Positions 8,870 through 60,372 of a stretch of DNA of 64,000 nucleotides are shown piece by piece. The stretch lies in assembly GCA_963785635.1 (NCBI GenBank), contig CAWAWB010000007.1:114199-178198 (forward strand). Direction: 5' to 3'. Made by a program: the position numbers and the translations under genes. Source of the stretch: an uncultured Phycisphaerales bacterium (lineage in GTDB: Bacteria; Planctomycetota; Phycisphaerae; SM23-33; FEN-1343). The notes under the pieces were generated by a model. The model did no database searches. It saw only the letters and a list, made by a program, of their open reading frames with translations, and was not told the origin of the DNA. Numbering within the stretch: position 1 is the first letter of the stretch; the number at the start of each line of letters is the position of its first letter.

Positions 8870-9070
8870 GGCGTTTTACCCTGTTCACACCGCCGCTTGG
8901 GACAGGTAGGGAAATTACACCATTTTGTGGTACGCTGCAAGAGCCTGAATAAGAATTTTTTTATTTTTCTTCAACCTGCAACTTCATGCGGCCCGATAAG
9001 TTGTGGTTTCACCACAAGATATTGGGGGTGAGATTTGTGTGGATACTAGTTGTAGGGCCTCAGATTTTTT

Positions 9071-9175
9071 CAGATTGCCAACATTCCAGCTTTGGCAACC
9101 TGGTTGGCAATCTGAAAAGCCTATGTGGCGACAGCAGTTACAGCTCCAGATTGCCAAAATTTCCAGATTGCCAAC
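9071..9175. repeat. Array of CCAGATTGCCAA motifs (5 copies, mixed orientation) in the mraZ upstream region. Copy 1 of a ~110-bp element also found at 24634..24738
   Basis: Copies sit at 9071 (fwd), 9092 (rev, variant CCAGGTTGCCAA), 9104 (rev), 9146 (fwd) and 9164 (fwd). The order and spacing match the element at 24634-24738. Confidence 0.6.
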
Positions 9176-9242: not shown

Positions 9243-10376
9243 TCAGTTCCCCTGATACCGCACAAAACTCACCAGATCGCGCAGCCACTGGCCATCATCC
9301 ACATCTTCGCTGGTGGTGGAATCCTGCTCGACGAGCACAAGGAGCGTATTGACGGGCCGATTGATGCGGGCGCTGGCGCCGAGTTTTTCGGCCAGGCTCA
9401 TAACAGAGCTTGCTTCCGCGTCCGAGACGAGCGCAGCTGTCATCATCCTGCGTGAGTTTTGGATCTATTACGGCCAAAGTGAGCTTGCCAAAAGAGGCGG
9501 TATCAGACGTGCCTGTGGCGATAAAGACCTCGCCCTCCCAACGTCCTTCAATCACCACGACCGATGGCGGGGAATCCGCCGCCCAACTTGCCAGATAGAG
9601 TTTTGCCTGGCCCGTTAAGAGCGGCCAGATCGCCGCCGCTTCATCCTGCATGCCCTCCATGCTTCCCAGGCCGGCGGCCCTAGAACCCTGGTGAACCAGC
9701 ACAGCCGCGCTGGTGGGTTGAGAGTCGGCTTGAACGATGCAGCCGCGGGCGATCGAGGACGGCTTTTGTTCCAGCGCCACACGATCATCTGCCGCCCGGT
9801 CAAGTCGGTTTCCGCCAATGCGGCGCGGCAGCACATCCACGCCTGCCAGTAGTGGGCGGCTAAAAGCAGATCCTGCCGCGCGAACGTCAGCGGTTGTGCC
9901 AGCTCCACGATTGGATCTTTGGCCGCGGCAACCACGGATAATGCGTCCCCCATAGCTGCCACCACATGTGCATCTTTCTCGTAGCCGGGCGGCGCTGACT
10001 GGCGGTAGGAACGGATGGCCTCCCGCAGCGCGGCAAGCTGCGGCTCCTGGCAACCGGCGAGAATCGATTCTGACAGGTCCAAATGGCCTGCGCCCGCCAG
10101 GGCGATGGCCGCGGAGCGATATTGCTGCACCTGGCCATCGAGTTCCAGCGACTCAGCGAACAGTGCCGCGGCCGCTTTGGCATTGCCCGTGGATAGCGCC
10201 CACTCGGCCTGCTGCCAGACTTCCTCGGCCGAACGCGCATCGGCCTTGCTCGCCTCGCGTTTGCAACCTGACGTCAATATCAAAGCCGCCAGCAGTATCG
10301 CCAATAAAGGGAATGCCTTGCGGCGGATTTGTGAAGCGACGGCCCCGGCGTGGTTTGATGGAGGCCAAAAAATCAT
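9243..10376 (-). CDS. Hypothetical lipoprotein (apparent frameshifts)
   Basis: The N-terminus has a signal peptide plus lipobox (LAILLAALILTSGC). The reading continues through three overlapping minus-strand ORFs (9615..10376, 9295..10053, 9243..9446). Confidence 0.4.
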
Positions 10377-13656: not shown

Positions 13657-14721
13657 TTAATACCCCCTGCTGGGGTAGGTTCCATCCGCAGTCGTGTGCT
13701 TGAGAATCTCGCGGTTGTCATCGGTTGGGGTGTAACTGACTACATGGCCGTCCCACATGACCGCCGCGGGATTGGGCTGGTAGTACTCGAAAGGCCACGT
13801 CCGGCCCAGCCACTGGTCATCATACGTGGTGTTGGCGCATCCGAAACAGGGTGGACAACTCATCGTCTGCCAGGCGTGGCTGTAATATTCAATCACGCTG
13901 AAATCCACACCCGTCGGCCGGCCGCTATTGGGGTCGCCGATAGACTGATGGACGAACAAGGGATAGGCGCTGGTGGCGGCATCGGCGCAGTTGTCACCGT
14001 CGCCCATCCAGATGGTGTTGCTGGCGTCGTTGAGCTCTTCGGGCCTATAAGGTCCCCAGCCATTGTTACGGTAATGAGGCGCGCCGGTATCGCTTGAGCC
14101 AAAGGGGAAGCTGTTTAAGAGGGTGGACCAGAAATAGGTGCAGCGGACCCTGCCGTAACGATCAAAGCTTGTGCTGCTGATCGTGCGATAGCTATTTCGG
14201 ACCAGGGGGCAGACGGCCAGGGGGCAATCGGTGACATTGTACTCGGGGCTGCTGGAGCCGTACATCCATTGGTTGTAGTCGATATCGACCGGCAAACAAT
14301 GCGTGACCACCAGGGAATCGACGGCCGAGGGACAAAAGTACCCATTGGGATCATTCAAACTGTAAGGTTGGCCGAACGTGTAATAAGGCAGCGGAACGTG
14401 GGGATCGTACATGTAGGCCGGCGCACCGCCGCAATAGGCATTGGTGAATTGCCCGGTCGGGTGAATCATCCAGCCGTGGGCCTGCGAGGCGTACATGGTA
14501 CCCGCGTTGTACAGGCCGTGCAGGTTGGCGGCGTCCAGCGCCTGCATGGCCTGCATCCTGGCCTGCTGGAGGCTGGGCAAAAGAATGCTCACCAGCAGGG
14601 CGATGATGGCGATCACCACCAGCAGCTCGATCAGCGTAAAGCCGCGCAGGGAAGGCCAGGGCCGTTCGGGCGCGGCCTTTGCATTACCATGTGTTTGCTG
14701 TACGCAGATCGTAGGTTCCAT
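13657..14721 (-). CDS. Prepilin-type N-terminal cleavage/methylation domain protein with a DUF1559-like C-terminus, paralog 1 of 4
   Basis: Class III signal and pseudopilin helix [29 protein letters not shown]. This family is expanded in Planctomycetes. Confidence 0.8.
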
Positions 14722-15751
14722 CCTTTGTACAATGCTTCAGAATTGAGTAATCCTGTGCCTCCGGCGGATCATACTGGGTCACGTGACCATCCCATTGTGC
14801 AGCGGCGGGCGAGGGATGGTAATAATCGAAGATGCCCTGCCGGGAGAGGGTGTTATCAGCGGCGGTAACCGATGCGCCAAAACAGGGCGGGGGGGTGAAA
14901 AAATCATCCCCGATGCCATAGTGGGCTATAGGGCTGAAGTCAACGGCCAGCGCATTGTTTGCACTGCCGCCATGGTTGGGATCAGGCCCGACTTTCTTTT
15001 TCGGAACGAAACCCGCATAGGTTCCCGCATCGGTGCAATTATCGGCATCACCCATCCAGATGGTATTGCTGGCATCATCCATTTCTTCAGGCCTGTATGG
15101 ACCATAGCCGTTATCACGATAGTGCCATTTGCCCGTACTGCTCATGCTCATCGGATCGCTGGTCAGCAGCGCCGACCAGAAGTAGGTGAATCGCACCATG
15201 CCTGTACTCTGGCTGTAATAAGTGATGGATGAGGCATCGAGGGTTGGAAACGAATTTCGGGCGAGGGGGCATACGCCGATGGCCACCTCGGTTACGTGCC
15301 ACTGGGGCGACCCGACACCCCACTGAACCATGCTGCTGTCCACATCGATCGGAACGCACTCTTTAACCACCAGGGAATCAATGGGAGATGGATCCCACCA
15401 CTGCACCAAGGGGTATTCGTTGTACGGCGGCCTGCCAAAGTTCCAGAAAGGCCCGGGGGTGGTAGGCTCGTACATGGTGGGCGGCGTGGTGGCGGGAATG
15501 TAATACATCAAGCCGCCAGGTTTATCGGCGAAATGGCTCATCGGATTACACATGTAGCCGTTGGATTGCGAGGCATACATGGCGCCCGCGGCGTACAGGC
15601 CGTGCAGATTGCCGCAGCACAGCGATTCCATGGCCAGGACCCTGGCCCGCTGGAGGCTGGGCAAAAGGATGCTCACGAGGAGCGCGATGATGGCGATGAC
15701 CACGAGCAGTTCAATCAGCGTAAAAGCACGCCTGCGGGATGCGGAAGAAGA
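14684..15751 (-). CDS. Prepilin-type/DUF1559 protein, paralog 2 of 4
   Basis: [29 protein letters not shown]. The likely GTG start gives (M)[13 protein letters not shown], in parallel with paralog 3. The ORF track extends to 15820. The 3' end overlaps paralog 1 by 38 bp. Confidence 0.75.
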
Positions 15752-15923
15752 ATGCACGGTTGGCCAGTTCCTACATATCACTGCCACAACTCCTAGATTC
15801 GGGGCGGGATTTGGATGCACTAGAACAACATTTTCTCATTACCGGCGGGACTTGTCCATATGTTGGCTTCTGGAATGGCAAAAAATCTTGCGGACTTCCG
15901 GAAAAAACCGCGATGCCCTCAGC
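15752..15923 (-). promoter_or_regulatory. Conserved promoter/5'-leader of DUF1559 paralog 2 (the same block recurs at 16934..17153 for paralog 3)
   Basis: Near-identical blocks are shared between 15760-15910 and 16935-17090. On the coding strand they read TTGCCA-N15/17-TAT(A/G)GA, a -35/-10 candidate, then a ~110-nt conserved leader up to the start codon. Confidence 0.4.
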
Positions 15924-16933
15924 TTAAGGACTCTGGTGCAAGGGCAGCTTGCCATCCTTGGTGGTCAGCTTGAGAACATCATCGTTGTTGTTGATGCCTG
16001 GAACGCTGTAGGGGCTGACGTGGCCGTCCCAGTGGGCGCCGGAGGGATCGGCCTGGTAGTACTCGCCCGTAGCTCCAGTGCTATAAGTGATAATTGAGCC
16101 AAAGCAGGGAGTTGCGCTCGTCATCCCGAAGATCGAGTAATAGGGGTTGTAGTACAGCACGGGCGCGGCGTCGCAAGGGGCGCCTTTATTGGCGGCGGTG
16201 ACGCCATTTGGATCGCCCAGCGCAAATAAGAGCGGATGCTGCCCCACATCGCCGACCATCATGGCGTCGCCCATAAACAGCGTGCGGCTGGGATCATTCA
16301 GCTCCTCCTGCTTATAGGGCCCCCAGGCGTTGTCGCGATAGAACGGGCCGCCGAAGTACAGGCTGGTCAGCAGCGAGGACTGGAAATACGTGGTCTGGTT
16401 TCTGCCCCACGTTTCCACGTCACAGCCGGCGATAACCGGAAAGGCGTTACGTGCCAGGGGACAGGCCGCCACGGCGGCCATGGCCGCGTAGTATTTGGGG
16501 CTGCCGGAGCTGCCTTCATACATCCTCTGGGTGAAATCAACATCGACGGCGATCGTCTTAGTGACGATCCAGGAGTCGGTCGCCATTGGCTGCCAAAAAT
16601 AGTTTGCCTCGTAATCATAAGGCGGGCCGAAGCTCAGGTACGGCGGCGGCGTAGCCGCATCCACGAAATTAGCGAGGGGCGAGACACTGAAGGTGCCCGT
16701 AACGGCGAAGGCCGAGTACGGGTGGCACATGAAGCCCTTGTTGGCGGAGGAATACATGGCGCCGGCCTGGTACAAGCCGTGCAGATTGCCGCCGCACAGC
16801 GATTCCATGGCCAGCTTTCTGGCCTGCTGGAGACTGGGCAACAGAATGCTGACCAGCAGGGCGATGATGGCGATCACCACGAGCAGCTCAATCAGGGTGA
16901 AAGCACGCCTGCGGGATGCGGAAAAAGAACGCA
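15924..16933 (-). CDS. Prepilin-type/DUF1559 protein, paralog 3 of 4
   Basis: [47 protein letters not shown]. The ORF track extends to 17105, but a conserved ATG at 16933 is preferred. Confidence 0.75.
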
Positions 16934-17153
16934 TGGCCGGCCAGCTCCTACCTATCACAGCCTGAATTCGGGGGCGGGGTTTTCGGTCACTAAAACCACA
17001 TTTTCTCATTACCGGCGGAACTTGTCTATAGTGCAACGCTTCTGGAGTGGCAAAAAATCTTGCGGACCTCCCGAAAAAAACCGCGACGCCCCTTTCACAG
17101 AGCATCGCGGCGATAAAACCATCCTCAGCCGGTTCAGGGGCCGGCGGCGAAAC

Positions 17154-18218
17154 CTAGCGCCGATCCTTCAAGGGCAGCAGGCCATCTTTGGTCGTCAGCT
17201 TCACAACATCATAGGCATTGTTCACGCCGGGCGGGCTGTAGGTGCTGACGTGGCCGTCCCAGTGGCCGCCCGAGGGATCCTGCTGGTAATACTCCCCCAC
17301 GGAGGGGCCGTTGTTATACGACATCACGCCGGCGAAACAGGGGAAATCATCCATTATTCTATAATTGCCAAAGATGCTGTAGAAGGGAGTGTAGTACTGG
17401 ACCGGCGCGGCATCACAAGGGATATTGGTGGCGTTGCTGGGGGTATTGGGATCACATAAATAAAACTTGATCGGGGGTTGGCCGATATCATTGCACATGA
17501 TGGCGTCGCCCATCCAGAGGGTCTTGCTTGCGTCGTTCAGCTCTTCCTGCTTGTAGGCGCCCCAGACGTTGTTGCGATAGTTCGGGGCGTTGGTGGAATC
17601 ACTGCCTTCCCAACTGGTCATCAGCGAGGACTGGAAATACGTGGTCTGGCTTCTGCCCCACGTTTCGGTCGAGGTAGGGCAGAGGGTGGGGAAGGCGTTG
17701 CGGGCCAGCGGACACACGGCCACGGCAGCCTGGGCTACATAGAACTTGTTGGGGGGGTTGCCCTGGTTCGTCTCATATATTCTGTGGCCAAAATCGACGT
17801 CGATAGCGATCGTGTGGGTGACGATCCAGGAGTCGACCGCCAGCGGCTGCCAGAAGGTATCGGCCGGGGTGACCTTGCAGTAGTCATACGGCGGGCCGTA
17901 GGTCCGGTACGGCGACGGAGTGCCGTAGGGATCCACAAGATAACCCGGACCGCTCAAGGCGAAGTCGGCGGGCGGAACGAACAACGCGAACTCCGGGCAC
18001 GGGTGGCACATGAAGCCGTTGTTGTCGGAGGAATACATGGTAGCGGCCTGGTACAGGGCGTGCAAATTACCGCTGCACAGCGATTCCATGGCCAGCTTTC
18101 TGGCCTGCTGGAGGCTGGGCAACAGAATGCTGACCAGCAGGGCGATGATGGCGATAACCACCAACAATTCGATGAGCGTAAAGGCCAGTTTAGATCTGCG
18201 GGACGGGCGCCGGTTCAT
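17154..18218 (-). CDS. Prepilin-type/DUF1559 protein, paralog 4 of 4
   Basis: [48 protein letters not shown]. Very similar to paralog 3. Confidence 0.8.
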
Positions 18219-19586: not shown

Positions 19587-19836
19587 GCTAAACAAAACCG
19601 CCGAACCGCGGCGCCGAAAGACACAGCAGACCTGCACTCGAACTGCAGACTTCAGACGCAGGCTGCATTACAAGAACACCACAACTGGCGTTTCTATAGC
19701 CGGCGTCAGCGACTTCAGAGCCCGATAACACGCTTGGGCATTAACGACCACACGGCCACCGGCTCTCTACTTGTAACGTACTACATACAGCCGCAAAGTC
19801 AAATCAAGAATGACATCAAAACGCGGTATAAATCAA

Positions 19837-20738
19837 CTAGCCTTGGGCTTTAAGAAAGTTCGTCAGCTTTCTGATAATGAAATTCCGCGTCATTTCCTGC
19901 GATTCGACGGTGACGCCGCCCAGGTGCGGCGTAATCACCAGGTTGTCATGCGTGGCGGCGTAGCGAATCAGCGGATGCTCGGCGATATTCGGCAGCCACT
20001 CGCCGTTGATGACGTCGATGCCCGCCCCGGCCAGTGGGCCGCTGGCCAGCACATCGATGAACGCCTGCTCATCGATAATGCCGCCGCGGCTGGTATTCAC
20101 CAGGATGGAGCCGCTCTTCATCTTGTTAAGCTTTTGGCGGTCGAAGAAGCCTTCATTGCCTTGAAGATGAATGTGAATGGAAAGAACATCCGACTCGCGC
20201 AGCAGGGTGTCCAAATCCACCATCGTGACGCCCGCTTCGGGCTTTATGTCCTTAGTATCGTTGGCCAGGACCTTCATGCGGAAGGCCTTGCCGTACTGCG
20301 CGGTGATCGTCCCTAACCGGCCGTAGCCCAGGACCCCCAGTGTCTTGCCGGAGATCTGATGCCCGCGCCAATCGCCGCCCACACGCCGCCACTGGCCCTT
20401 CTTGGCGGCTTCAAAGCCCCAGGGAATTTTGCCGCACGGTCGCCAGCATGAGCGCCCAAGCCAGCTCGGCCGTGGCCGTGATGCTGCTCAAGAATGCCGT
20501 CTCCTCCTTGAGGCACAGGATGGCGATATTCTTTTCGGCGGCGGCGTCCAGATCGACGTGATCGCGGCCGGTGGCGCCAAAGGCCAACGCCCGCAGCTTT
20601 TTCGCCTTGTCCAAACAGCGCCCGGTCATAGCGGATGGCAAGGCCGATGAGCGCGGCATCGGCATCCACGATGTGCTTCTCCACATCCTCGCGCGTGGAG
20701 GGAATCTGCACGACATCCGCTATCTGCTTGAGCTCCAT
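19837..20738 (-). CDS. D-isomer-specific 2-hydroxyacid dehydrogenase family protein (two apparent frameshifts)
   Basis: The C-terminal part (ORF 19837..20382) has the NAD-binding GKTLGVLGYGRLG and the catalytic region. The N-terminal parts lie in ORFs 20313..20738 and 20411..20716. Confidence 0.7.
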
Positions 20739-22263: not shown

Positions 22264-23392
22264 TCAGCAGATCCTGGCCGCGATGCACCACCTGCTCCAG
22301 CGCAGCTCGTTATTTTCAAACCGCGCCAGCACAAATTCCGCCTCCTGCCCCGCCGCCAGTTGCGGCAGTTCCAGATGGATGATGGAGGCCGGGATTAAGC
22401 TTTGCTGCCGCCAGGCATCGGCCAACGACCAACCGAGCTGGCACATCCGCTCAACGCAGCGATCCGCCTGGAACCAGTTGCCCGCCAGGAGGCGCATATC
22501 TTCTTTCAGGCTGCACCGGCCCTGCGGCTCGATAACTACATTGCCGTAATCCCCCGGCGGCAGGCTGGAAAGGCCGCTGGCATCGGAGACGAGAAAAACC
22601 TTGTCGCGCCCCTTGGCGGCCATCACGGCCATGATTAAATCACCCGGCAGATGCTGACCATCGGCGATCAGCCCCAGTTTCAGCCGCGGCTCTGCCAGCC
22701 AGGTCCATAATGGATTTTCGTGGCGGTGGATCATGGCCGGCGCGCCATTGCCGAAGTGCGTGACGATGTCGGCCCCGGCATCGATGGCCGCGCGAATGGA
22801 ATCGGCCTTGGGACCGCAGTGGCCCATTGAAATCCGCAGCCCTTCCTTCACCGCGCGGCGAATCGTCTCCAGCGCCCCAGGCAGTCTCCGGGTCCAGGTT
22901 GAACATCATGATCCGCCCGCCGGCCGCCTCCTGCATCTTCGCCCATTCATCCCAGTTGGGATCGCGCATGTATTTGGCCGGATGTGCGCCGCGCCAGCCA
23001 TCCTGGCGGGAGATGTACACGCCCTCGGAAAACGCGCCAAACCACAGGTGCTCCAGGTCCTCATCCGCCTGGACCAGCTTGTCGAAGGTGAGCAGGCTGG
23101 CCAGGAGCAGATCGAACGGGCAGGTGGACGTCGTAAACAGCGCGCGGCCGATGCCGTGACGGCGCAGATGGTCGGTGACGATGCGCAACCCCTGGGGCTT
23201 TTCGGCCAGATGATTGTTGGCGTAACCCAGCGCGCCATTGTGCTGGAGGTCCACCAGGGGCGGGGCGATCAGGGGCAGATCATCGCCCTTGCACGCCTGG
23301 ACGCTGGTGATCCGATCACCCGTGATGGTCACTTCGACCGCCTGGCCGGTCAGGGTTTTGCCGCGATATTTCTTCGCCATGCCGCTCTCCAT
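22264..23392 (-). CDS. nagA: N-acetylglucosamine-6-phosphate deacetylase NagA-like amidohydrolase (apparent frameshift near 22850)
   Basis: The N-terminal part (ORF 22640..23392) has the metal-binding VDLQHNGALG region. The C-terminal part (ORF 22264..22851) has ISMGHCGP...THFGNGAPAM, typical of NagA. Confidence 0.65.
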
Positions 23393-23415: not shown

Positions 23416-24475
23416 TTAGATCGTGTACGTCGCCGCCCAGTTGCAGCAGGGGTAGCCTTTAACCACGTGCAGGAGCCCCAGCGTCGGCTCGGCCACCACG
23501 GCCATCGTGGTGTTGTTGCCCTCGGGGTCGGCGTGGCGGCACAGGCCGTCCGGGCTGCCGGTGTGGTCTGCGAAGAAGGACATCGCCTTCTGCGGCGTCA
23601 ACTTTCCTTTTTCTGATTCGATCAATTCCGCCAGTCGGTCATAGCGGAAAAAGGAATTAGCCTCGATGTCCTTGGTCTCAAATTTCATCACCGCCGCGAT
23701 CTTTGGAACGACCGCGTGATTCGTGTGAATGCTGATGCCGTTATTGGCCTTAAGGATGGCATTGCCGCCACCGTTGGTTTCAATCGATAAACACCCGCCC
23801 TGCGCATCACACAGCGTGGCCGTGCCCTTGCTCTTGCGACCGTACTTTTCGATCAGGGCCGCAGCCTCATCCACGGTTTTGCACGACCGCAGCAGCATGG
23901 TCATGACCGTATACTGGATACCCTTCTCGCATATGCCGGATGATGGAATCGCGTTGCGGAAAAGCGACATGCCCGTGGACCAGAAGCCATAACCCACCAG
24001 TTCGCCGGGAAAGGCCGCAAAGATCATGCTGGGTCCATCGCTCATCCGCATCCGCACGACGGACCAGATGTTCAGCCGGTGCAGCGGCGAACACTTGGAT
24101 TGCCCCGAGAGCGGCCGACCGCTCAGCGTGTGTATGCCGGAAACGGCGAAACTGTTCGTGCCTCCCGCCTGCCCCGGCGCAGGAGGCAGCGCGGCCGTCG
24201 CGGCCGGAGGTTTCGCCGCCGCCGGCGGCGGCTGGGGAATCACATCCGTTATGCCGCGGTACAGATCCAGTAGATAGGGTGCATGCTTTGCGACGAGCTC
24301 GTTTCTCGTGAGCAGGCAGGTCCTTCCAGTACCAGGCCGTGTCGATGAAGTGCAGGTCGGGAAACTTTTCGCGCACGATTCGCGCATATTCGCGGCCGCA
24401 CTCATAGGCCGTGCCTTCGATGTCGATCCAGGGGATTTCAGACGAGTATCCTTTGCAGCCGCCGACATCGCTCAT
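23416..24475 (-). CDS. Peptidase C45-like acyl-CoA:6-APA acyltransferase / linear amide hydrolase family protein (apparent frameshift near 24300)
   Basis: The N-terminus is in ORF 23867..24529 (MSDVGGCKGYSSEIPWIDIEGTAYECGREY...). The remainder is in ORF 23416..24468. It is the first gene of a minus-strand operon. Confidence 0.4.
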
Positions 24476-24600
24476 GGTTCGTTCCTTAAAGCGAAAACGT
24501 AAGCATAGCCGAATGGGGCAACCATTCAAGTGAACTTTGCCACAGTCTTGGCACTTGGGGCTTCAGGCTTGAGGAACTGCCGGAGGTATTTACGCCTCGC

Positions 24601-24745
24601 CTAATCCCCCGGATATGTTGCGGGGATTAGCTCCAGATTGCCAACTTGTTCTCCAGATTGCCAACCGTTGGCAATCTGGAAAAGTCCTGTTTTTATTGGC
24701 ATCTTTCGATAAGGTTGCCAAGATTTCCAGATTGCCAATATGCGT
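24601..24745. repeat. 30-bp palindrome (ctaatcccccggatatgttgcggggattag) followed by an array of CCAGATTGCCAA motifs (5 copies). Second copy of the element at 9071..9175
   Basis: Motif copies sit at 24634 (fwd), 24654 (fwd), 24668 (rev), 24713 (variant) and 24727 (fwd). The element lies just upstream of the C45-nagA operon start. Confidence 0.6.
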
Positions 24746-24839
24746 TAACCGAGGCCATACCGAGTGAATTTAGGCAAGATAGATAACCTGGGCAATGTTG
24801 GATTCGAATGGCTCGGCACCCAGAAGTCGGAAAAATCTG

Positions 24840-25110
24840 TGGAAAGGTGGCGAAGATGCGCAAGCTTGATTCACCTTGCGCACCTTCAAAAACAGCTCAA
24901 AAACTGGGCGTTTTTGCCCAAGGTGCGCAAGATGCGCAAGGTGCGCAACGCGAGTGGTGACCAAATGACCAATTTGGTCATTTGGTCAGTATTGTGTGGC
25001 GAACTGTTGGCGCCCTTCGGCCGTTTTTTGCACGTAAGTCCTTGTAAATAAAGGACCGGCTCGAAGAGTGCCACCGTCTAAACCCTTGGCACCCTTCCTG
25101 GCGCCCTTCG
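24840..25110. repeat. Composite intergenic repeat (R2 family) containing TTGCGCATCTTC-type units, a perfect 30-bp palindrome and CTTTATTTACAAGGACTTACG units
   Basis: aaggtgcgcaagatgcgcaaggtgcgcaa (24918-24950) and cacgtaagtccttgtaaataaagg (25031-25054) match, in inverted orientation, units at 52541-52700. The perfect palindrome tgaccaaatgaccaatttggtcatttggtca lies at 24959-24989. Confidence 0.55.
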
Positions 25111-25266
25111 GTTATCCCGCGCGGCAGTCTGGGCAAGCTGCACAATCTGGGCAAGATTCTGGTGAAGCTCTTGAAAGTAGATCAAGGTGGCCAAGAGGAG
25201 AGATTTGGCCACCTTGTTGATCGCTTTGAGCAACTAAATGTTCTTGTTAAGCCTTAAGCCTATTTA

Positions 25267-26205
25267 TCACGGCACCTCCAGGACGATCTTGCCGCGCGTG
25301 TGGCCGGACATGATATCCACCCAGGCGCGGTTGGCCTCATACAGCAGGTACGTCTTGCTCACCACCGTCTTGATGTCCCCGGCATTGGCCAGTTCGCCGA
25401 TCTGGCTGATCCGCTTGCTACTGGCCTGCATGCTGAAGATGGCCGCGTGGACGTTCTTTTTTGCGGCCAGGTCCGCATCCGGACGCTGCGTCAAGGCCAC
25501 GAGGAAGCCACCGGGCTTCAGGACCTGGAACGATTTTTCCTGGATCTCCCCGCCGATCGTATCCAGCACCACATCCACATCCTTGGCGATGGCCCAGAAG
25601 GCCTGGGTCTTGTAGTCGATGACCAGGTCGGCCCCTAGCGAGTTGACAAAGTCCGCGTTGGCCGCCGAGCAGGTGGCAATGACCCTCGCGCCCGCCCAGC
25701 GGGCAAACTGGACCGCAAAGCTGCCCACGCCGCCTGAGGCGCCGTGGATCAGCACGGTCTGGCCATCGCGGAGATTGGCCACCTCGAAAAGTCCCTGCCA
25801 GGCCGTCTGCCCCGCCAGCGGCACAGAGGCCGCCTGAATGTGGTTGAGCTTGGAGGGCTTGGGGCTGAGGAAATCCGCCTTCGTGACGGCGTACTGGGCG
25901 TACGAGCCGCCGCCGGGCGTACTGCCGAAGACTTCCTGGCCCTCGCGCAGATCGGTTGCGCCCTCGCCCACCGCTTCGATAATGCCGGAGAAATCGCCGC
26001 CGGGAATCCACGGGAATTTCAACTGGAGTAATTTACCCGTAGCCAGTTTGACATCCACCGGATTGACCGATGCCGCCTGGATGTGCACCAGCACCTGGTC
26101 GGCCGCGGGCATCGGTACATCCACATCCTCAAAGTGCAATTGTTCGGGGCCGCCATACTGGCCGATCCGCATGGCCTTCATGGTTTTGACGCGTACGGTC
26201 GTCAT
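25267..26205 (-). CDS. NADPH:quinone oxidoreductase / zinc-type alcohol dehydrogenase (MDR) family
   Basis: MKAMRIGQYGGPEQLHFEDVDVP...GASGGVGSFAVQFA. The start MTTVRVKTMKAM has GGAG upstream, and the longer ORF to 26463 is probably 5' read-through. Confidence 0.8.
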   Translation of the reverse strand: MTTVRVKTMKAMRIGQYGGPEQLHFEDVDVPMPAADQVLVHIQAASVNPVDVKLATGKLLQLKFPWIPGGDFSGIIEAVGEGATDLREGQEVFGSTPGGGSYAQYAVTKADFLSPKPSKLNHIQAASVPLAGQTAWQGLFEVANLRDGQTVLIHGASGGVGSFAVQFARWAGARVIATCSAANADFVNSLGADLVIDYKTQAFWAIAKDVDVVLDTIGGEIQEKSFQVLKPGGFLVALTQRPDADLAAKKNVHAAIFSMQASSKRISQIGELANAGDIKTVVSKTYLLYEANRAWVDIMSGHTRGKIVLEVP

Positions 26206-27464: not shown

Positions 27465-29135
27465 TCATCGCCAACGAAAAAGCTTAAGTTTGGCTTCGCG
27501 TTCGAAGGCGTTGCAAACCTCGCGAAGGCGACGGCTTCTAAACTGCTTGAAGGCTGTCCAAACACCCTTTGTCCAGAGACCACTACCATCGTCGTATGGA
27601 ATTAAATGACTCTTCATTATCTCTTTAAATCTTCGCCCCAAGCGTTGCTTATAATGGTCAAGGTACTGTCGCGGAAGACGTGATCCTATCTTCTTGTTGT
27701 CTCTAGCCACAAGAAAACAAATGTTACAAAGACTGTTGTAGGTTCGGGAATCAGCGTGATTCTTAAGCTGCGCGCGTGGGAAGATGTGGTGTCTCTCATT
27801 TCTGTTGGCTACGCTCGCTATCTCTCGAATGGGAATGGCTCCTCCGTTATCTAGGTAACAAGGCTTTTGCTTTGCTAAGAGACAGAAAAACGCTCTCGAT
27901 CGTGAGGAACTAGATGAATACTCTGTGGCTTGTATATCCAATACTGGATCAAGACGTTCGTGAAAAACAAATGACCTTTGTGATCCTTGCGCAATTGATT
28001 TAAAAAACTTTGCATCGGATAGAATATTTCTGTGATACCCCCGGCCGCTATACCTCTGACCAACAGCCGTAGCCCAGAACCATTTTCTTATTTGGAGTGA
28101 TTGGTGTTTATTTGGCTGGCCCGTCTGGTAATAAAAAAAGGCCGTCAACGTTGCCAACATATTCGCGGAAGGTAGAAACGATTCGTTGTAAACTGGAAAG
28201 CGGTGATGCAGATAATCAACGGCATCACAAAAAGCATTTTGGAATTTCTTCCAGGTTTTTTTAAACTTCTTTATTTCATTGGGCTTATCTTTGAGACGCT
28301 TTGACAGGCGTTTGGCCATAGCATCAAGTTTTGGTGGCGCGCCTTTAGCATCCATAGGTTCATCAATAAGATTGAAAGCTAGCAGAATGGTTGCGACGTC
28401 TTTTATGGCAAAGACTTTTTCATGGATTCTCTGACGTAGCTCTTGAGCCATGGCTCTCACATCTATTGTCCCCATGATGGCTATGGCTCGATCTGCTGAA
28501 GTAATTCGCATCCCCTGCGAATTGATCCTGATGAACACTTCTCCAATTTCATCCATATTTTTCGTTCGAACCAAAACGTAAGGAACGACATAACTTAGCA
28601 GGCGTGATCGACATTTTTGAATTTTGCTCACTATTGACTTCGGGTATTTGCGGAAGTTGTTTTTCCAGTCTGGTGCCAAAATACCCTTAACAGGCACGTA
28701 CTCTCTTTCTATTGGTTGTCGATAGACAAATAGGGGCGATTCTTCTTTTCTTCGGTGAGAGTTGACTGAAAAACACAGATGACCGAATTTTATTTTCTTT
28801 CCAGCATCATTCTCCCGTTCCTCGCCTTCAAATGCTTGATGAATTACTGACAGTCTTTGTTGCCCGTCAATTACGAACCAGATGTGCCCATTGCCGGTAC
28901 TGAAAGCCGGAAGTACCCCTGTGGATTGCCGAATCAGGTGTGCTGATTGTTGGGGCAATTCCCAAAGGAAAAAAGAACCGATTGGCATCTGCCGATAGAT
29001 GCTGTCAAGTAGCTTGGCAGATCGACGAGGATCCCATACAAAATTTCGCTGGAGTTTAGGAATCGCAAAGCGTCTTTCCTGCAAATAACGGCGTAATGTT
29101 TGGATTTTGATCTTGCTGAAACTTGCTGGCTCCAT
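27465..29135 (-). CDS. GmrSD-like type IV (modification-dependent) restriction endonuclease, DUF262 + DUF1524
   Basis: The N-terminal DUF262 has QRNFVWD...IGSFFLW and DGQQR. The C-terminal DUF1524 His-Me finger has ERHHIFPRAQLKNHAD. The gene is visibly AT-richer than its flanks. Confidence 0.8.
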   Translation of the reverse strand: MEPASFSKIKIQTLRRYLQERRFAIPKLQRNFVWDPRRSAKLLDSIYRQMPIGSFFLWELPQQSAHLIRQSTGVLPAFSTGNGHIWFVIDGQQRLSVIHQAFEGEERENDAGKKIKFGHLCFSVNSHRRKEESPLFVYRQPIEREYVPVKGILAPDWKNNFRKYPKSIVSKIQKCRSRLLSYVVPYVLVRTKNMDEIGEVFIRINSQGMRITSADRAIAIMGTIDVRAMAQELRQRIHEKVFAIKDVATILLAFNLIDEPMDAKGAPPKLDAMAKRLSKRLKDKPNEIKKFKKTWKKFQNAFCDAVDYLHHRFPVYNESFLPSANMLATLTAFFYYQTGQPNKHQSLQIRKWFWATAVGQRYSGRGYHRNILSDAKFFKSIAQGSQRSFVFHERLDPVLDIQATEYSSSSSRSRAFFCLLAKQKPCYLDNGGAIPIREIASVANRNERHHIFPRAQLKNHADSRTYNSLCNICFLVARDNKKIGSRLPRQYLDHYKQRLGRRFKEIMKSHLIPYDDGSGLWTKGVWTAFKQFRSRRLREVCNAFEREAKLKLFRWR

Positions 29136-31202: not shown

Positions 31203-31284
31203 CCGCGAAAACTCCAAATCCCAAATTCCAAACGAAGGACAGACCGCCTGCGTGCCTAGGGCCGGCACATAACAAAACAAATAC

Positions 31285-31470
31285 GCAACACAAAAGAGCA
31301 CAAAGGTCACAAAGAGCACCAAGAACGGCCGGAAAAGGCTTTTAAAAAACTCTTCTGAAGTTCTTTTTGGTGAGCTTGGTGACCTTGGTGCTCTTGGTGA
31401 TTTAATGGTTCTTCTTACGTGTTTGGCTTGGTCCTGGTGGTCTTTGTGTTCCTCTTCACTTTTCATTGAC
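31285..31470. repeat. Hairpin repeat element of the CACAAAG family
   Basis: Left arm is cacaaaagagcacaaaggtcacaaagagcaccaag. The loop has aacggccggaaaagg. The right arm is the inverted ggtgaccttggtgctcttggtga...ggtctttgtgttcctc. Confidence 0.6.
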
Positions 31471-37596: not shown

Positions 37597-37621
37597 TCTT
37601 GAAAATCAGCCATAGGACCCA

Positions 37622-37782
37622 AAAAAAATAACCACAAAGGTCACAAAGAAGCACAAAGGGCATAAAGGAAGAAAAGAGTAAAGGCAAGAGAGGGAAAAAA
37701 TTAAGAAATGTTTCCGGCCGTTCTTTGTATTCTTCGTGGTCTTTGTGATCTTTGTGGTTAATTCTCGATAAAAAAAAGGCCG
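37622..37782. repeat. Hairpin repeat element of the CACAAAG family (intact reference copy)
   Basis: Left arm is aaccacaaaggtcacaaagaagcacaaagggcataaagg. The loop has gaagaaaag...ttccggccgttc. The right arm is tttgtattcttcgtggtctttgtgatctttgtggtt. Confidence 0.65.
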
Positions 37783-39915: not shown

Positions 39916-40283
39916 GGCGAAAAACGTTAATCAGTTAATCCGTTAATCGGAAACGGCCGGAACAAGGTCCTTCCCACTTGGGAAATCGTACCGAGGTTTC
40001 GGGGGAGTTGGTAGGGTGTGCAGCTTCGCTGCACACGTTTTTCTTGGCCCTCCTCCGTGGTATGGGTGGCGGTGCCATCTGATATTCTGCCATTGACAGA
40101 GGCTTGAGGCTTGAGGTTCATCAAAGGGTCAAAGCCTCTCTTTGCGCTTGCAGACTTTATTAATTGGAATAAAGTGAGACATGGGTGCCGGGGCTGCAAC
40201 CCCTCTCCTTTGGGAGAGGGTGGCCCCGCGAAGCTTCAGCGATGCGGGGCCAGGTGAGAGTGCAGCCACGCTTGGAGGCCAAT

Positions 40284-41687
40284 ATGATCAAACTGATGTT
40301 CCTGGATTACCGGGACTTGGAGACGGTGAAGGGTTTTGCGCGGCAGGCGCACATACCCGCAAAGCATAAGGGCGACCCGCTCTTAATCAGCGACCTGGCG
40401 AGTGAAGTCAACCTGATGTCCATGTTCGGCACAGTGATCCGGCGGCCGACGGACGGCCTGTACCAGTACTGGTACAAGTGCTACAACCCCAATGACAAGG
40501 GCCCGGCATTGGCCTACGCCTTCAGCGAGGATGGCCTCAAATGGCAGCGGCCGCAGATGGACATTGTGAAGTTCCAGGGCCAGGGCACGAATATCGTGTT
40601 TGATGGCGGCCCGCACGGCACTGCACTTCTGTACGATGAGCGCGAAACGCGGCCGAACTGGCGGTACAAGCTGGTACACGGCGCCAATCCCTCCAAGCGG
40701 ATCTGCGCCTACCGCAGCGGCGATGGGCTACACTGGCTGCCTGCATGCGAGAACCCGATTATCGGCGCAAGCACGGGCGGGCCCCTGGGCCTGCTGCGGA
40801 CTGATGAGGGGCGGTACGTTATGTATATCCGCCCGGCCAAGAACGACCGCCGCGTGGCGCGCAGCGAATCGTGGGATTTTATCCACTGGACCGAGCCGCT
40901 GGTCGTGATCGATCAGGATCCCGTCGATCCCATGCAGGTGCAATTCTACGGCATGCAGGCCCAGACGTACGGGGCGTACGAGCTGGGGCTGCTGTGGATC
41001 TACGCTACTGAGGCGGACGATCTGGCGTACCACAAGCCGCGCGGCGTGATGTACCCCGAGTTAGCGTACACGCGCTGCGGTTACGCCTGGCACCGCACCA
41101 GTCCGGGCACGCAATGGATTCCACTTGGGCCGGAAGGCTCATGGGATGCCAAGCAGATCCATCCCTCCAGCCTGCCCTGCTACCTGGAAGATGAGGTCCG
41201 CTGGTACTACACCGCGGCCAACAAGGCGCATGAATTCGTGGCCCGCGGCGGTGAGCCGATGTGGGGATTGGGCTTTGTGTCGTGCAAACCTGATCGGTTT
41301 GTGAGCCTGAATGCGGAGGGCGGCGAGGCGGAAATCCAGACACGGCCGTTCTGGAGCGAGGTGGGCGAGTTCTACCTCAACGCCGATGTGGCAAAACACG
41401 GCAGTGTGAGCGTAGAGGTGATGGACACACCTGGACAGGTGATTGAAGGTTTTGCCTCGGGTGATTTCAAGGGAATCAAGGGCGATTCTTTAAGGCACAA
41501 GCTATTGTGGAAAGGTGATGCGGGGGCGCTGGCCAACCGGCAGATCCGCCTGCGGATCAAGGCCAGGAACGCCAAACTGTTTTCCATCGCCGGCGGCACG
41601 GAGCAGGAGGTGCGGGAGTATTGGAAGTTCCGCACCCCCCACTACCTGCCCATGGATGAGGAAAAGGCCCTGCTGGGGACTTACTAG
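40284..41687 (+). CDS. BNR/Asp-box beta-propeller protein, putative glycoside hydrolase
   Basis: The likely start is MIKLMF, after GGAGG. Asp-box-like motifs are SEDGLKW, SGDGLHW and SWDFIHW. The ORF 5' extension (40185-40283) is hairpin-rich non-coding sequence. Confidence 0.4.
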   Translation: MIKLMFLDYRDLETVKGFARQAHIPAKHKGDPLLISDLASEVNLMSMFGTVIRRPTDGLYQYWYKCYNPNDKGPALAYAFSEDGLKWQRPQMDIVKFQGQGTNIVFDGGPHGTALLYDERETRPNWRYKLVHGANPSKRICAYRSGDGLHWLPACENPIIGASTGGPLGLLRTDEGRYVMYIRPAKNDRRVARSESWDFIHWTEPLVVIDQDPVDPMQVQFYGMQAQTYGAYELGLLWIYATEADDLAYHKPRGVMYPELAYTRCGYAWHRTSPGTQWIPLGPEGSWDAKQIHPSSLPCYLEDEVRWYYTAANKAHEFVARGGEPMWGLGFVSCKPDRFVSLNAEGGEAEIQTRPFWSEVGEFYLNADVAKHGSVSVEVMDTPGQVIEGFASGDFKGIKGDSLRHKLLWKGDAGALANRQIRLRIKARNAKLFSIAGGTEQEVREYWKFRTPHYLPMDEEKALLGTY

Positions 41688-50759: not shown

Positions 50760-51501
50760 ATGATAACGCCTGAAACAGTGTACGGGATCGGCCTGACGAT
50801 GCTGCCGATCCTTATGAGCTTGGTGATTCATGAGTTCGCCCATGCGCGGACGGCCCTGGCCTTCGGCGATCCGACGGCCAAATTGATGGGCCGCTGCACC
50901 TTTAACCCGCTGGCCCATCTGGACCCGCTGGGCACGGCGTTGATGGTCTTCGTAGGTTTTGGCTGGGCCAAGCCTGTGCCGGTAAACCCGTTTAATCTCC
51001 ACCCGCCGCGGATGGGGAATATCTGCGTGAGCCTGGCCGGGCCCTTCAGCAATCTGGGGCTGGCGCTGGCGCTGCGCCGTGGCCATGCGCATTTTGGTGG
51101 CTTGCGGCTGCGCGGTTAATATTGATGGTGATTTCAAAGCAATTGACCTGGCGTTCTTCCTGCTGACCTACGGAATGCTGATCAACTTGAATCTGGCGGT
51201 GTTCAATCTCATTCCGCTCTTCCCGCTGGATGGCCACCACATCGGGCGAGAAACGCTGCCCGCCGCCGCGCGGCAGGGGTACATGCACTGGCAGATACGC
51301 TACGGCATGTATGCTTTCCTGCTTTTGTGGATCGGGCCGCAACTGCTCAGGTGGACCACGGGAATCAACATCAATCCCCTCGGCTGGTACCTGGGGCACG
51401 TGGTCGGGCCGATGATGGATTTCCTGATCGGCAAGAGCGGCGAATTGCCTGCCTGGACCGCCTTTTTAAAATTTGAGCCGTATTTGTTCTGGAGACATTG
51501 A
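50760..51501 (+). CDS. Site-2 protease family (M50) zinc metallopeptidase (apparent frameshift near 51090)
   Basis: HEFAH zinc motif in TM helix 1 (ORF 50760..51119). LAVFNLIPLFPLDG is in ORF 51079..51501. Confidence 0.7.
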
Positions 51502-51519: not shown

Positions 51520-52519
51520 ATGAGCACCACCAAAGCCACCAAGCGCGTTCTTTCGGGCATTCAACCATCCGGACGGCTGCACCTGGGCAATTATCTGGGC
51601 GCGATTCGCCAGTATTTGAAGTTGCAGCAAGAAGGCCATGAGTGCTTCTACTTCATCGCCAACTACCATGCGATGACGTCGCTCCAGGATAAGGCCGAGC
51701 TGGAAGCCTCCACGCTGCACGTCGCGATGGCGTACCTGGCGCTGGGCATCGACCCGAATCGCAGCGTGTTTTTCGTGCAGTCGGATGTGCCGGAGGTGAC
51801 CGAGCTGTGCTGGATCCTCAACACGGTCTGCCCGGTGAGCCTGATGCAAAAGGCCACCAGCTACAAGGACAAAGTGGCGCGCGGCCTGGCCGCGAACATG
51901 GGCCTGTTCGATTACCCGGTGCTCCAGGCGGCGGATATCGTGATTTACGATTCGCACCTGGTGCCCGTAGGCCAGGACCAGAAGCAGCATATTGAAATCA
52001 CGCGCGATGTGGCCTGCGCGCTTCAACCAGGCCTACGGCAAGGAGGTCCTGGTGCTGCCCGAGCCGTACATCGTGCCGGAGGTGGCGATCGTGCCAGGCA
52101 TCGATGGACAGAAGATGTCCAAGAGCTATGACAACACGATTGAGATTTTCCAGACGCCCAAGCAGACATCCAAGCGATGCGCTCTGATTGTGACGGATTC
52201 TACTCCGTTGGAGGCGCCCAAGGACCCGGATCGCGACAATGTGTTCGCCCTGATAAAGCTTTTGGCCGCGCCGGCCGAGGTGGAGGAGATTGCCGCCAAA
52301 TACCGAGCCGGCGGTTATGGGTATGGCCACGCAAAATCGCGCCTGGCGGAGCTGATTAATGAGCTCTTTGCTCAGCCGCGCGAGCGATACGGCGAGTTGG
52401 AAAAACGGCCGGATGAAGTCCGCGACATCCTCCGCGAAGGCGGCAAAAAAGCGAGGCGAGTCGCCGATGCGACCTTGCAGCGCGTGCGCGATGCGGCGGG
52501 AATCCTGGTCCATAGATGA
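51520..52519 (+). CDS. trpS: Tryptophan--tRNA ligase TrpS (apparent frameshift near 52000)
   Basis: The N-terminus is in ORF 51520..52131, and the KMSKS region (KMSKSYDNTIEIF) is in ORF 51992..52519. Confidence 0.9.
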
Positions 52520-52539
52520 CAGACAGGCCCGGCCTGCAC

Positions 52540-52700
52540 GCCCACGAAGGTGCGCAACTAGGCTTCAGTTGCGCATCTTCTTGAGCACCTTGGGGCCAGC
52601 CCTTTATTTACAAGGACTTACGCGCGATTTTTGTCCCTCAATCGCTCCGGGCTTGCGCATCTTCGACGGGCACCTTATTTGACAAGCACTTACGCGCCGA
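52540..52700. repeat. R2-family intergenic repeat: two tandem ~70-bp units (TTGCGCATCTTC...CTTTATTTACAAGGACTTACGCGCG)
   Basis: Unit 1 is 52541-52610 and unit 2 is 52629-52690. These are related to 24918-25060 in inverted orientation. A nearby palindrome caactggtcatcttgaccagttg lies at 52819-52841. Confidence 0.55.
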
Positions 52701-52958
52701 AAAAACGCCCAAAAACGCGAAGGTGCGCAAGATGCTCCCCTCTGAGCGCCTTCGCGACAAATAATCTTACCCAGTTTACCCTTCTTGCCCAGATTGCCAG
52801 AAATGCCAAAGTGCAGTGTTCCATACCGCGAAGCCCATCAACTGGTCATCTTGACCAGTTGAGCGAGCATAGCCGGTCCACGGTCTCCCCCACAGCCACG
52901 TGTCATTTGGTATGATGATTGCACGGGATGCGCTTTCCTCCCAGCCTGGCGCATTTTT

Positions 52959-55603: not shown

Positions 55604-55725
55604 CTTGCGCTGCTTGCCCATTCTTATTCTCCAGTGGCGAATTTACGCCGAATAACAACTGTGCATTATTGTGCGAGAATGTATGAGTCTACATTTTTTG
55701 GCGGACAGTTCAAGGGAAGTTAACA

Positions 55726-55790
55726 GGTTACAGGGTACAGAGCTCCGGCCGTACCTCTTCCTGTTCTGTACCCTGTAACCTTCAACCTGC
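55726..55790. promoter_or_regulatory. Perfect 16-bp inverted repeat (ggttacagggtacaga N33 tctgtaccctgtaacc) in the GH4/pyrD divergent region
   Basis: Read directly from the sequence. It lies ~40 bp upstream of the pyrD start. It could be an operator or a leader hairpin. Confidence 0.4.
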
Positions 55791-55830
55791 AATTGAATTT
55801 ACGGGCCGCAAATGCTAGTGTGCCCCTTCA

Positions 55831-56766: not shown

Positions 56767-56833
56767 GAAAAAGAAAGATAACCACAAAGATCACAAAGAC
56801 CACGAAGGACACAAAGAAGACAAAGGCATTAAA

Positions 56834-58180: not shown

Positions 58181-58289
58181 CATTAAAACTTAATCCGGAA
58201 GAGAATTCTCCGGCCGTTCTTCGTGCTCTTTGTGATCTTGGTGATCTTTGTGGTTGCCTTTTCTTAAGCGTCCAGGCTGGAGGTGCAAC

Positions 58290-60239: not shown

Positions 60240-60372
60240 TTTCACCTTAATTACAAATTACAAGTGACAAAGTACAAATTACGGGAGACCCGCACATCAA
60301 CGCCCGAACCGAATCCCATCACCCCGTCCCTCTTATAATTTGTAACTTGTACTTTGTAATTTGTAATTTCTC
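60240..60372. repeat. Hairpin repeat element, TACAAAT/GACAAAG variant of the heptamer-phased family
   Basis: Left arm is aattacaaattacaagtgacaaagtacaaattacggg. Right arm is the inverted ttataatttgtaacttgtactttgtaatttgtaatttc. Confidence 0.55.

Follow-up and report, generated by a model that had tools for sequence, protein, structure and literature searches.

Two five-box arrays upstream of mraZ and of an amino-sugar operon in an uncultured planctomycete are probably copies of a genome-specific intergenic repeat

The 64-kb stretch of DNA analysed here (the window) contains two colinear arrays of ~105 bp, each made of five copies of the 12-bp box CCAGATTGCCAA, one lying upstream of mraZ and the dcw cluster and the other upstream of an amino-sugar operon. 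The reading that we favour, with a probability of roughly 0.6, is that the two loci are paralogous copies of a genome-specific intergenic repeat of ~105 bp, in which the boxes would be protein-binding sites and any effect on the neighbouring promoters would be incidental. The repeat is best read as a member of the broad class of dispersed mosaic or short-unit repeats (BIME/REP, STRR, BOX, MITE-like), "dispersed" meaning here two full copies in 64 kb. By comparing orthologous loci, we showed that both copies were gained in this lineage after the split from relatives sharing the flanking operons and that the boxes, judged from their sequence and context, are operators of neither MraZ nor the local LacI regulator. 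A shared operator coupling the dcw cluster with amino-sugar recycling would, if true, have represented an unusual cell-wall regulation in a phylum with an atypical division machinery; the evidence points instead to young, genome-specific repeats and to a different, conserved block as the true mraZ promoter and predicted operator, and wet-lab effort on the binding of MraZ or LacI to the boxes can be spared.

The original prediction described two loci with five boxes each in a similar order and spacing, which was borne out by mapping of the boxes, the offsets being near-identical (0/22/34/76/93 at locus 1 and 0/20/35/77/94 at locus 2). The arrays and their boxes are given below, with the scores obtained with R1, a sequence-only model built from the two copies in the window.

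9070-9174, plus strand: locus 1 array (copy 1), model R1 score 105.4 bits
9070-9081, plus strand: locus 1 box 1, TCAGATTGCCAA
9092-9103, minus strand: locus 1 box 2, CCAGGTTGCCAA
9104-9115, minus strand: locus 1 box 3, TCAGATTGCCAA
9146-9157, plus strand: locus 1 box 4, exact
9163-9174, plus strand: locus 1 box 5, exact
24633-24738, plus strand: locus 2 array (copy 2), model R1 score 107.4 bits
24633-24644, plus strand: locus 2 box 1, exact
24653-24664, plus strand: locus 2 box 2, exact
24668-24679, minus strand: locus 2 box 3, exact
24710-24721, plus strand: locus 2 box 4, degenerate, TAAGGTTGCCAA
24727-24738, plus strand: locus 2 box 5, exact

Box 2 points in opposite directions at the two loci; its locus 1 version (CCAGGTTGCCAAAGCTGG) is two-sided and palindromic, and at locus 2 boxes 2 and 3 together form a perfect 27-bp palindrome with an odd centre of 3 bp. 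The extended consensus of the box is TTTYCAGATTGCCAAC, 12 to 16 bp long. Both copies are intergenic and stand in direct orientation, 15.5 kb apart, in a core chromosomal context. Eight occurrences of the 10-mer AGATTGCCAA were counted over the 64 kb, all of them within the two arrays, for ~0.065 expected from base composition. When up to two mismatches are allowed, the window contains 17 matches to the box versus 7.4 ± 2.8 in dinucleotide shuffles, none of the 100 shuffles reaching 17; nine matches have 0 or 1 mismatch and all of them are in the two loci, except one at 52789. The R1 model detected only two full-length copies in the window (105-107 bits) and no third one among the other ~20 intergenic regions. 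The locus 1 array is identical in L098, a Logan assembly obtained independently from the same sample; elsewhere, 7 indels over 3.8 kb distinguish this assembly from the window.

Comparison of the two copies showed that 43 of the 48 box positions (90%) are identical between them, whereas the 30-nt spacer separating boxes 3 and 4 has 17 matches out of 30 versus 15.0 ± 1.8 in shuffles, which is the random level. Copies that had been mobile recently would be expected to be alike throughout, and the coexistence of boxes ~90% identical with a main spacer at random similarity argues for a maintenance of the box sequence and of its phasing; so the boxes seem to be under constraint or homogenised. The cause of this maintenance could be selection for sequence-specific recognition by a protein, gene conversion among boxes, or both. 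Since a single sequence is found in all boxes, even in the direct pair, which is unable to self-pair, recognition by a protein explains the pattern better than RNA structure alone, and the boxes are probably sites for a DNA-binding protein.

The MraZ homologs put the organism among uncultured Phycisphaerae-like Planctomycetota. Nearly all genes from 0.5 to 29 kb are co-directional. Pfam and NCBIfam models identified a single long series of minus-strand genes, which extends over both loci. Before locus 1, it comprises murF, murE, a PBP, a LysM protein, rsmH and mraZ (start codon at 8869), and the array itself begins 68 bp past the stop codon of the upstream gene. Between the two loci are found a hypothetical gene, surE, a GH20 hexosaminidase, four pseudopilin-like genes, a LacI regulator, a 2-hydroxyacid dehydrogenase, an AGE-like gene, a nagA-like gene and a C45/AAT peptidase, whose start codon at 24475 is followed by locus 2. 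Past locus 2 come a repeat-rich stretch of ~530 bp and then a zinc-dependent alcohol dehydrogenase. The gene calls of the original prediction were for the most part correct: Pfam confirmed MraZ, RsmH, the C45/AAT peptidase, the LacI regulator and the 2-hydroxyacid dehydrogenase; "AGE" is a weak call, with a sub-threshold Pfam match (17.4 bits versus a cut-off of 23.4 bits, E 0.0028) backed by synteny with the relative L227, in which the ortholog carries PF07221; "nagA" is a weak match far below cut-off and is split over two reading frames. Several genes of the window are split in this way, and these splits are most likely assembly errors, because of the indel differences observed with the Logan assembly. 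The palindrome announced in front of locus 2 is present in the sequence:

24601-24630, no strand assigned: hairpin adjoining locus 2, palindrome ctaatcccccggatatgttgcggggattag, 9-bp stem and 12-nt loop, between the array and the C45 gene, present in the minimum-free-energy fold

This hairpin is probably outside the repeat unit, because it has no counterpart at locus 1.

The proposal that the boxes form an operator array for MraZ was addressed by comparison with four loci (L099, L101, L104 and L106) encoding MraZ orthologs 68-80% identical to the protein of the window. The gene order surE-hypothetical-mraZ-rsmH is kept in three of these four mraZ loci, and the box ATTGCCAA occurs zero times in the 9-17 kb around each of them. 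The spacer between the hypothetical gene and mraZ measures 425 bp in the window versus 218-335 bp in the relatives, and this greater length indicates that the array is a lineage-specific insertion, located upstream of the conserved promoter of mraZ at a distance of ~130 bp. The block TGGTGTAaTTTCCCTAnCnnTCCCA is invariant in all five mraZ upstream regions, 25-50 nt before the start codon, and corresponds in the window to the following element:

8898-8922, minus strand: conserved block TGGTGTAATTTCCCTACCTGTCCCA, directly upstream of mraZ, outside the element

An A/T-rich tract and a TTGnnn hexamer resembling a -35 (TTGCAG at 8935-8940 in the window) come before the invariant block, which itself resembles an extended -10 followed by tetramers in a 10-bp phase. 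The segment 8898-8922 is thus likely the true -10 and predicted MraZ-operator region, and constitutes a much better candidate than the box array. Across diverse bacteria, MraZ sites usually consist of three or four GTG(G/T) boxes in one orientation, with 6 nt between them, located at the promoter or at the start of transcription (PMC12957436). The arrays described here resemble such sites in being made of repeated short boxes and, at locus 1, in lying upstream of mraZ, but the box (CCAGATTGCCAA / TTGGCAATCTGG) has no GTG on either strand, the orientations are mixed, the start-to-start spacings range from 12 to 43 bp with no direct 10-bp phasing, and the locus 1 array is 130-235 bp upstream from the -35-like hexamer. 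The lack of a GTG(G/T) core, the mixed orientation, the distance from the promoter and the absence of boxes from the four orthologous promoters rule out an MraZ operator.

The second regulator proposed for the shared array, the local LacI protein, fared no better. In L227, the orthologous operon comprises a 471-aa gene, C45, a 382-aa gene, AGE, the 2-hydroxyacid dehydrogenase, LacI and pseudopilin-like genes; merely 73 bp precede C45, and no box was found there or upstream of the preceding gene. The DNA-binding head of LacI is near-identical in the window and in L227 (RLVDIA..VGVSRGAVG[H/R]VLLGSG; VSRGAVGRVL versus VSRGAVGHVL), so that the same operator is expected for both proteins; the lack of boxes next to the L227 ortholog rules out a LacI operator. 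Operators of the LacI family are palindromes of 14-20 bp with a central CG, to which a dimer binds; locus 2 does contain a perfect palindrome, of 27 bp and with an odd 3-bp centre, and locus 1 has no close inverted pair, its spacers being 10 or 22 bp. As both operator readings fail, the link that had been drawn between peptidoglycan synthesis and amino-sugar recycling through MraZ or LacI finds no support. Separately, a weak alternative candidate for a LacI operator, TACGTTACA, is found at 19772-19780 upstream of lacI, and a weak candidate with a central CG (TACGTTA) is found upstream of lacI in both the window and L227. The ortholog of the 471-aa gene is intact at 40185-41687 in the window; this displacement marks locus 2 and the adjoining repeat-rich stretch as a synteny breakpoint, copy 2 lying at the rearrangement breakpoint upstream of the C45/amino-sugar operon. 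The intact ortholog also led us to reject the possibility that the 740-bp region beside locus 2 is a decayed 471-aa gene.

The other suggestion of the original prediction, a mobile MITE-like element that landed in two promoters, holds in a broad sense, as a repeat element: the copies are lineage-specific, one of them is at a synteny breakpoint, and the genome is rich in repeats. The signature of a classical MITE is absent, as the arrays have no terminal inverted repeats (boxes 1 and 5 are direct at both loci), no direct repeat that could represent a target-site duplication flanks either copy (by inspection and by BLAST of the flanks), and the spacers have diverged to a random level. No cognate transposase or RAYT is encoded within the 64-kb window, where the only transposase is IS481-like and has different ends. 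No sigma-70 promoter was found inside the arrays, and the TGGCA-like motif of the box does not belong to a sigma-54 promoter, since by inspection no GG-N10-GC with a TTGC element is present at either locus.

Several families of intergenic repeats share properties with these arrays. One of them is that of the BIMEs (bacterial interspersed mosaic elements) and REP elements, which are also extragenic, contain one short unit in both orientations with fixed linkers, form hairpins, are species-specific and exist in several mosaic architectures per genome; the BIMEs of Enterobacteria are bound by host proteins (IHF, gyrase) and influence the transcripts next to them. The two arrays are likewise extragenic, with hairpin-forming units in both orientations. 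REP/BIME units, however, are imperfect palindromes of 20-40 nt with a conserved 5' tetranucleotide, associated with RAYT (Y1 transposase) and present in tens to hundreds of copies, whereas the unit described here measures 12-16 bp, is only weakly palindromic alone (its 12 nt contain a 3-1-3 palindrome, TTGcCAA), has no GTAG-type 5' tetranucleotide and no RAYT in the window, and has at least two full copies, as counted over 64 kb. The short tandemly repeated repetitive (STRR) sequences of cyanobacteria and, in Streptococcus pneumoniae, the BOX elements are similar in consisting of short intergenic units (7-12 bp or modular boxes) that are lineage-specific and of largely obscure function, and the window also contains heptamer-type arrays (TGACCAA / TTGGTCA); STRR are simple head-to-tail tandems, unlike the mixed orientation and the unequal but conserved spacing observed here. 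With MITEs, the arrays share a small size, a non-coding and intergenic nature and lineage specificity, in a genome possessing an IS481-like element with MITE-like derivatives, but besides lacking terminal inverted repeats, a target-site duplication and a cognate transposase, the copies differ outside the boxes.

The distribution of the box beyond the window was studied by scanning one genome per species for two copies of the 11-mer CAGATTGCCAA within 32 nt, which gave 97 loci, 17 of them in Planctomycetota (~10 of those clearly intergenic); a metagenome scan added 113 further loci. The proportion of 17 hits out of 97 is suggestive of an enrichment of the box in Planctomycetota. The 11-mer, often extended to the palindrome CAGATTGCCAATCTG, recurs in intergenic repeats of ~10 independent families, which come from Gemmataceae, Pirellulales, Planctomycetaceae and Phycisphaerae genomes, and at many loci this palindrome is part of tandem repeats of 33-40 bp. 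The loci recovered by the scans have only the box in common: the five-box architecture was found nowhere else among 229 fetched loci, which reached at most 24 bits with R1 versus the 105-107 bits of the window copies, and as far as seen among the loci compared it appears private to this genome. Homology of window-like arrays was rejected as a general inference from pattern scans, one of the families (L113, L133 and L154) being eukaryotic, with a histone H3 ORF. No protein family consistently adjoins the array-bearing loci of Planctomycetota, only a ParDE-like pair being common to two of them. On two unrelated contigs (L182 and L197), a primase/helicase-like gene belonging to a phage- or plasmid-like element is directly followed by a box array, which thus stands at the boundary of a module. 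BLAST against phage and plasmid sequences gave no match, scans of viral sequences returned period-30 coding repeats or nothing, and a search of the literature for the motif gave only unrelated primers.

Other arrays of short units exist in the window and in its relatives. Some of them are in the stretch adjoining locus 2 and in its paralogue:

24740-25267, no strand assigned: repeat-rich, AT-richer non-coding stretch by locus 2, at the synteny breakpoint
24846-24953: GGTGCGCAAG boxes, within the 24740-25267 stretch
24958-24988: TGACCAA/TTGGTCA palindrome, within the 24740-25267 stretch
25030-25066, minus strand: CCTTTATTTACAAGGACTTACG block, within the 24740-25267 stretch
52520-52900, no strand assigned: rearranged paralogue of the 24740-25267 mosaic, with exact 14-22-nt blocks in common
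52788-52800: degenerate box CCCAGATTGCCAG, within the 52520-52900 paralogue

The stretch next to locus 2 also contains CTGGGCAAG units; the ORFs inside it have no Pfam match and the stretch itself matched no RNA family. Elsewhere, the window has inverted pairs of TACAAAT type and of GGTTACAGGGTACAGA, and at least four copies of a family built from CACAAAG units of 9 bp. Two of these copies, as a pair, constitute the ~100-nt inverted ends of the gene at 56897-58054, which was recognised by a model of IS481-family transposases (E = 3e-20, under the curated cut-off) and also matches transposase-type helix-turn-helix domains; the shorter CACAAAG copies, found at 31.3 and 37.6-37.8 kb, resemble MITE derivatives of this IS481-like element. 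Among the relatives, L099 has AAATCCGAAG arrays and REP-like palindromes, L104 has GATTAAC units upstream of surE, and L106 has a Y1_Tnp gene adjoining surE. Short-unit intergenic repeats are thus a general, fast-evolving feature of the lineage, the CCAGATTGCCAA array being one family among them.

Three other explanations were weighed against a genome-specific repeat. Both loci fold far better than shuffles on both strands (z-scores from -3.7 to -5.9, the latter on the minus strand of locus 2), as the inverted boxes give strong hairpins, and a long stem made of boxes 5 and 3, with box 4 enclosed, is predicted at both loci. Such folds would suit a structured RNA, either a REP-like hairpin module of 3' or 5' UTRs or a small RNA, transcribed from the minus strand with the flanking operons and able to stabilise, terminate or attenuate transcripts; the T variants of locus 1 boxes 1 and 3 would still pair as G-U on the minus-strand RNA, and the short distance of locus 1 from the upstream stop codon also fits. 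We hold this RNA to be very unlikely, given that the plus strand is equally stable, a trivial outcome of inverted repeats, and that what is kept is the sequence identity of all boxes, the direct pair included, instead of a complementarity with a pattern of covariation (for which there are two copies only). No U-tract terminator adjoins the arrays, Rfam gave 0 matches at gathering score over the whole window (a permissive search returned spurious miRNA hairpins far below cut-off), and no tRNA was found. The boxes may also be relics of mobile-element ends or recombination sites, that is, sites for a transposase or recombinase (Tn7/Mu-type ends or Sin/beta-type res) left solo in the chromosome; in Sin/beta-type res sites, a bend site stands between an inverted and a direct pair. 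A precedent exists in the window with the IS481-like gene, its inverted ends and its MITE-like derivatives; locus 2 contains an inverted pair (boxes 2 and 3), a ~30-nt spacer and a direct pair (boxes 4 and 5, 17 bp start to start), and the layout of sites I and II in Sin-type res sites resembles this arrangement, with several 12-bp motifs over ~100 bp and an inverted and a direct pair ~30 bp apart. The box arrays at the module boundary of phage- or plasmid-like elements and the position of locus 2 at a synteny breakpoint point in the same direction. The chances of this explanation are nevertheless small: the spacer of the inverted pair is 3 bp at locus 2 versus 10 or 22 bp at locus 1, while a crossover site should conserve its geometry, and this difference, with the lack of a resolvase in the window, led us to reject a Sin/beta res site. 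No recombinase or transposase is encoded within 30 kb of either copy save the unrelated IS481-like element, the spacers are far more diverged than in copies recently mobile, and viral, phage and plasmid collections gave no match. The two copies, 15.5 kb apart, are in direct orientation and hence are not the two ends of one transposon; a single 15.5-kb transposon, or an attL/attR pair, was likewise rejected on this orientation, on the non-identity of the copies and on the ancestral adjacency of surE, the hypothetical gene and mraZ.

A regulatory role was the remaining possibility. In this explanation, the boxes would form a cis-regulatory array, with an activating or repressing action from upstream, bound cooperatively by a putative transcription factor, other than MraZ and the local LacI, which would place the dcw cluster and the amino-sugar operon under joint control in this lineage. 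The retention of boxes and spacing next to a randomised spacer is what is expected of a functional module under selection in the host; both copies lie 104-130 bp upstream of predicted sigma70-like -35 elements and are oriented alike with respect to the operon that follows; the two operons have related functions (peptidoglycan synthesis for one; GH20, nagA-like, AGE-like and C45 peptidase for the other); and the other intergenic regions of the window have no third full copy. The shared orientation is uninformative in a region of co-directional genes, where any surviving intergenic insertion falls upstream of an operon and a match of orientation has one chance in two. The array is moreover missing at both promoters in relatives whose operons and promoters are the same, no regulator emerged as a candidate, and many other box arrays occur in the same genome without obvious regulatory logic, all of which makes a dedicated regulatory array doubtful in our view. 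A wider version, in which the box would be a recognition site of a DNA-binding protein shared across Planctomycetota and the five-site platform would have been recruited upstream of both operons, coupling them, we judge quite improbable.

Under the favoured reading of a genome-specific intergenic repeat, the boxes would be recognised by one putative sequence-specific DNA-binding protein encoded elsewhere in the genome, possibly of the transposase or recombinase type or else nucleoid-associated, that would assemble on the five phased sites. Gene conversion between boxes may contribute, and the inverted boxes could form strong hairpins in the transcript or in single-stranded DNA. If mraZ or the sugar operon is affected at all, this would then be a side effect of the landing site (insulation, bending or a roadblock upstream of the promoters), with no dedicated shared regulon.

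The maintenance of boxes and phasing amid the decay of the spacers directs attention to this putative binding protein, in a lineage with unusually many intergenic arrays of short units, including a family that makes up the ends of an IS481-like element. The five-box arrays could be used as markers for strain typing and for the annotation of MAGs. Finally, gene callers can read through the arrays, as the box translates as P-D-C-Q.

The region upstream of mraZ contains a conserved block that is a candidate for the control region of this gene:

8898-8940, minus strand: conserved candidate mraZ promoter/operator

It includes a -35-like TTGCAG (8935-8940, minus strand) and the block TGGTGTAATTTCCCTACCTGTCCCA (8898-8922), invariant across five Phycisphaerae-like genomes, which is likely to represent an extended -10 and, after it, tetramers phased at 10 bp. 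At 25 bp from the five-box array of locus 1, TATCCACA (9038-9045, minus strand) matches the DnaA-box consensus at 8/9 positions, and a lone match of this kind is what chance would produce.

For the amino-sugar operon, a motif with a TACGTTA core and a central CG was found upstream of lacI in the window (19772-19780, minus strand) as well as in L227 (~14760), a relative carrying the orthologous C45-AGE-LacI operon, and we tentatively propose it as a candidate for the true LacI-family operator. The 5' end of the C45 operon is rearranged in the window lineage: the 471-aa gene (L227, 8512-9927) preceding C45 in the L227 operon has its counterpart, 51% identical, at 40185-41687 (plus strand) in the window, 16 kb away. 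Between LacI and the GH20 hexosaminidase lie genes of another type, which have internal repeats in common (65-82% identity):

13657-18218, minus strand: four tandem paralogous pseudopilin-like genes carrying an N-terminal methylation motif of the prepilin type

Several genes of the window are split over two reading frames:

9243-10376: hypothetical gene
19837-20716: 2-hydroxyacid dehydrogenase
22264-23392: nagA-like gene
23416-24529: C45 peptidase
50760-51501: Peptidase_M50
51520-52520: trpS

The splits probably reflect indel errors in the assembly rather than pseudogenes, since comparison of the window with L098, a contig of an independent Logan assembly from the same sample, revealed 7 indels in 3.8 kb.

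Scans for the box also returned arrays in other settings, one of them an element in two metagenome contigs:

L197, 442-2760, minus strand: phage- or plasmid-like element
L182, 1943-3148, minus strand: phage- or plasmid-like element

This element encodes a primase/helicase-like protein (AAA_25 and a CHC2 zinc ribbon), whose reading frame continues across TTGGCAATCTGG boxes arrayed over ~190 bp, with P-D-C-Q as the translation of each box. Starting at the first box, L197 and L182 match each other at 100% identity, and they are unrelated on its other side; possibly, the arrayed boxes are origin iterons. Five-box CCCAGATTGC(CAA) arrays much like that of the window were found in six contigs of eukaryotic origin, sampled from freshwater and the Baltic (L113, L117, L120, L133, L154 and L176), which carry a histone H3 ORF; they call for caution about convergent arrays returned by exact-pattern scans of very large collections. 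Among Planctomycetota, the near-palindrome GCAGATTGCCAATCTGC is repeated in L070 and L090 (Pirellulales MAG), L022, L038, L041 and L059, with ten copies within 8 kb of one MAG. Its settings differ among several Planctomycetia genomes, as tandem or hairpin repeats, and this recurrence resembles the behaviour of REP sequences, with a core motif shared with the window box.

The window also contains an IS-like element and a family of short derivatives:

56772-58262: IS-like element
31280-31470 and 37617-37760: CACAAAG-family MITE-like derivatives

The gene of this element (56897-58054, minus strand) matches the NCBIfam IS481-family transposase model with E = 3e-20, at a score under the cut-off, as well as helix-turn-helix domains of the transposase type. 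On either side of it lie composite inverted ends of ~100 nt (56774-56865 and 58149-58261), which consist of 9-bp CACAAAG units and a 32-nt arm with 97% complementarity. In the derivatives, forward units are followed by a conserved AAGAACGGCCGGAAA centre and then by inverted units; the same design occurs at 3400-3560 of L099, a relative with the orthologous mraZ locus, but with AAATCCGAAG as units.

Two non-coding regions are mosaic and AT-richer:

24740-25267: mosaic region
52520-52900: mosaic region

Exact blocks of 14-22 nt are common to both but differ in their order (GGTGCGCAAGATGC, CCTTTATTTACAAGGACTTACG, CAATCTGGGCAAGA and TGGTCA/TGACCA palindromes). Neither region matched a known RNA family, and their ORFs yielded no Pfam domain. 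Intergenic inverted-repeat modules are present at 60249-60368 (AATTACAAATTACAAGTGACAAAGTACAAATTA and its complement) and 55692-55814 (GGTTACAGGGTACAGA and its complement).

Finally, a gene in a low-GC island (0.41-0.47 versus 0.60 for the window) is probably a defence gene acquired horizontally:

27465-29135, minus strand: GmrSD-type (DUF262) restriction endonuclease gene
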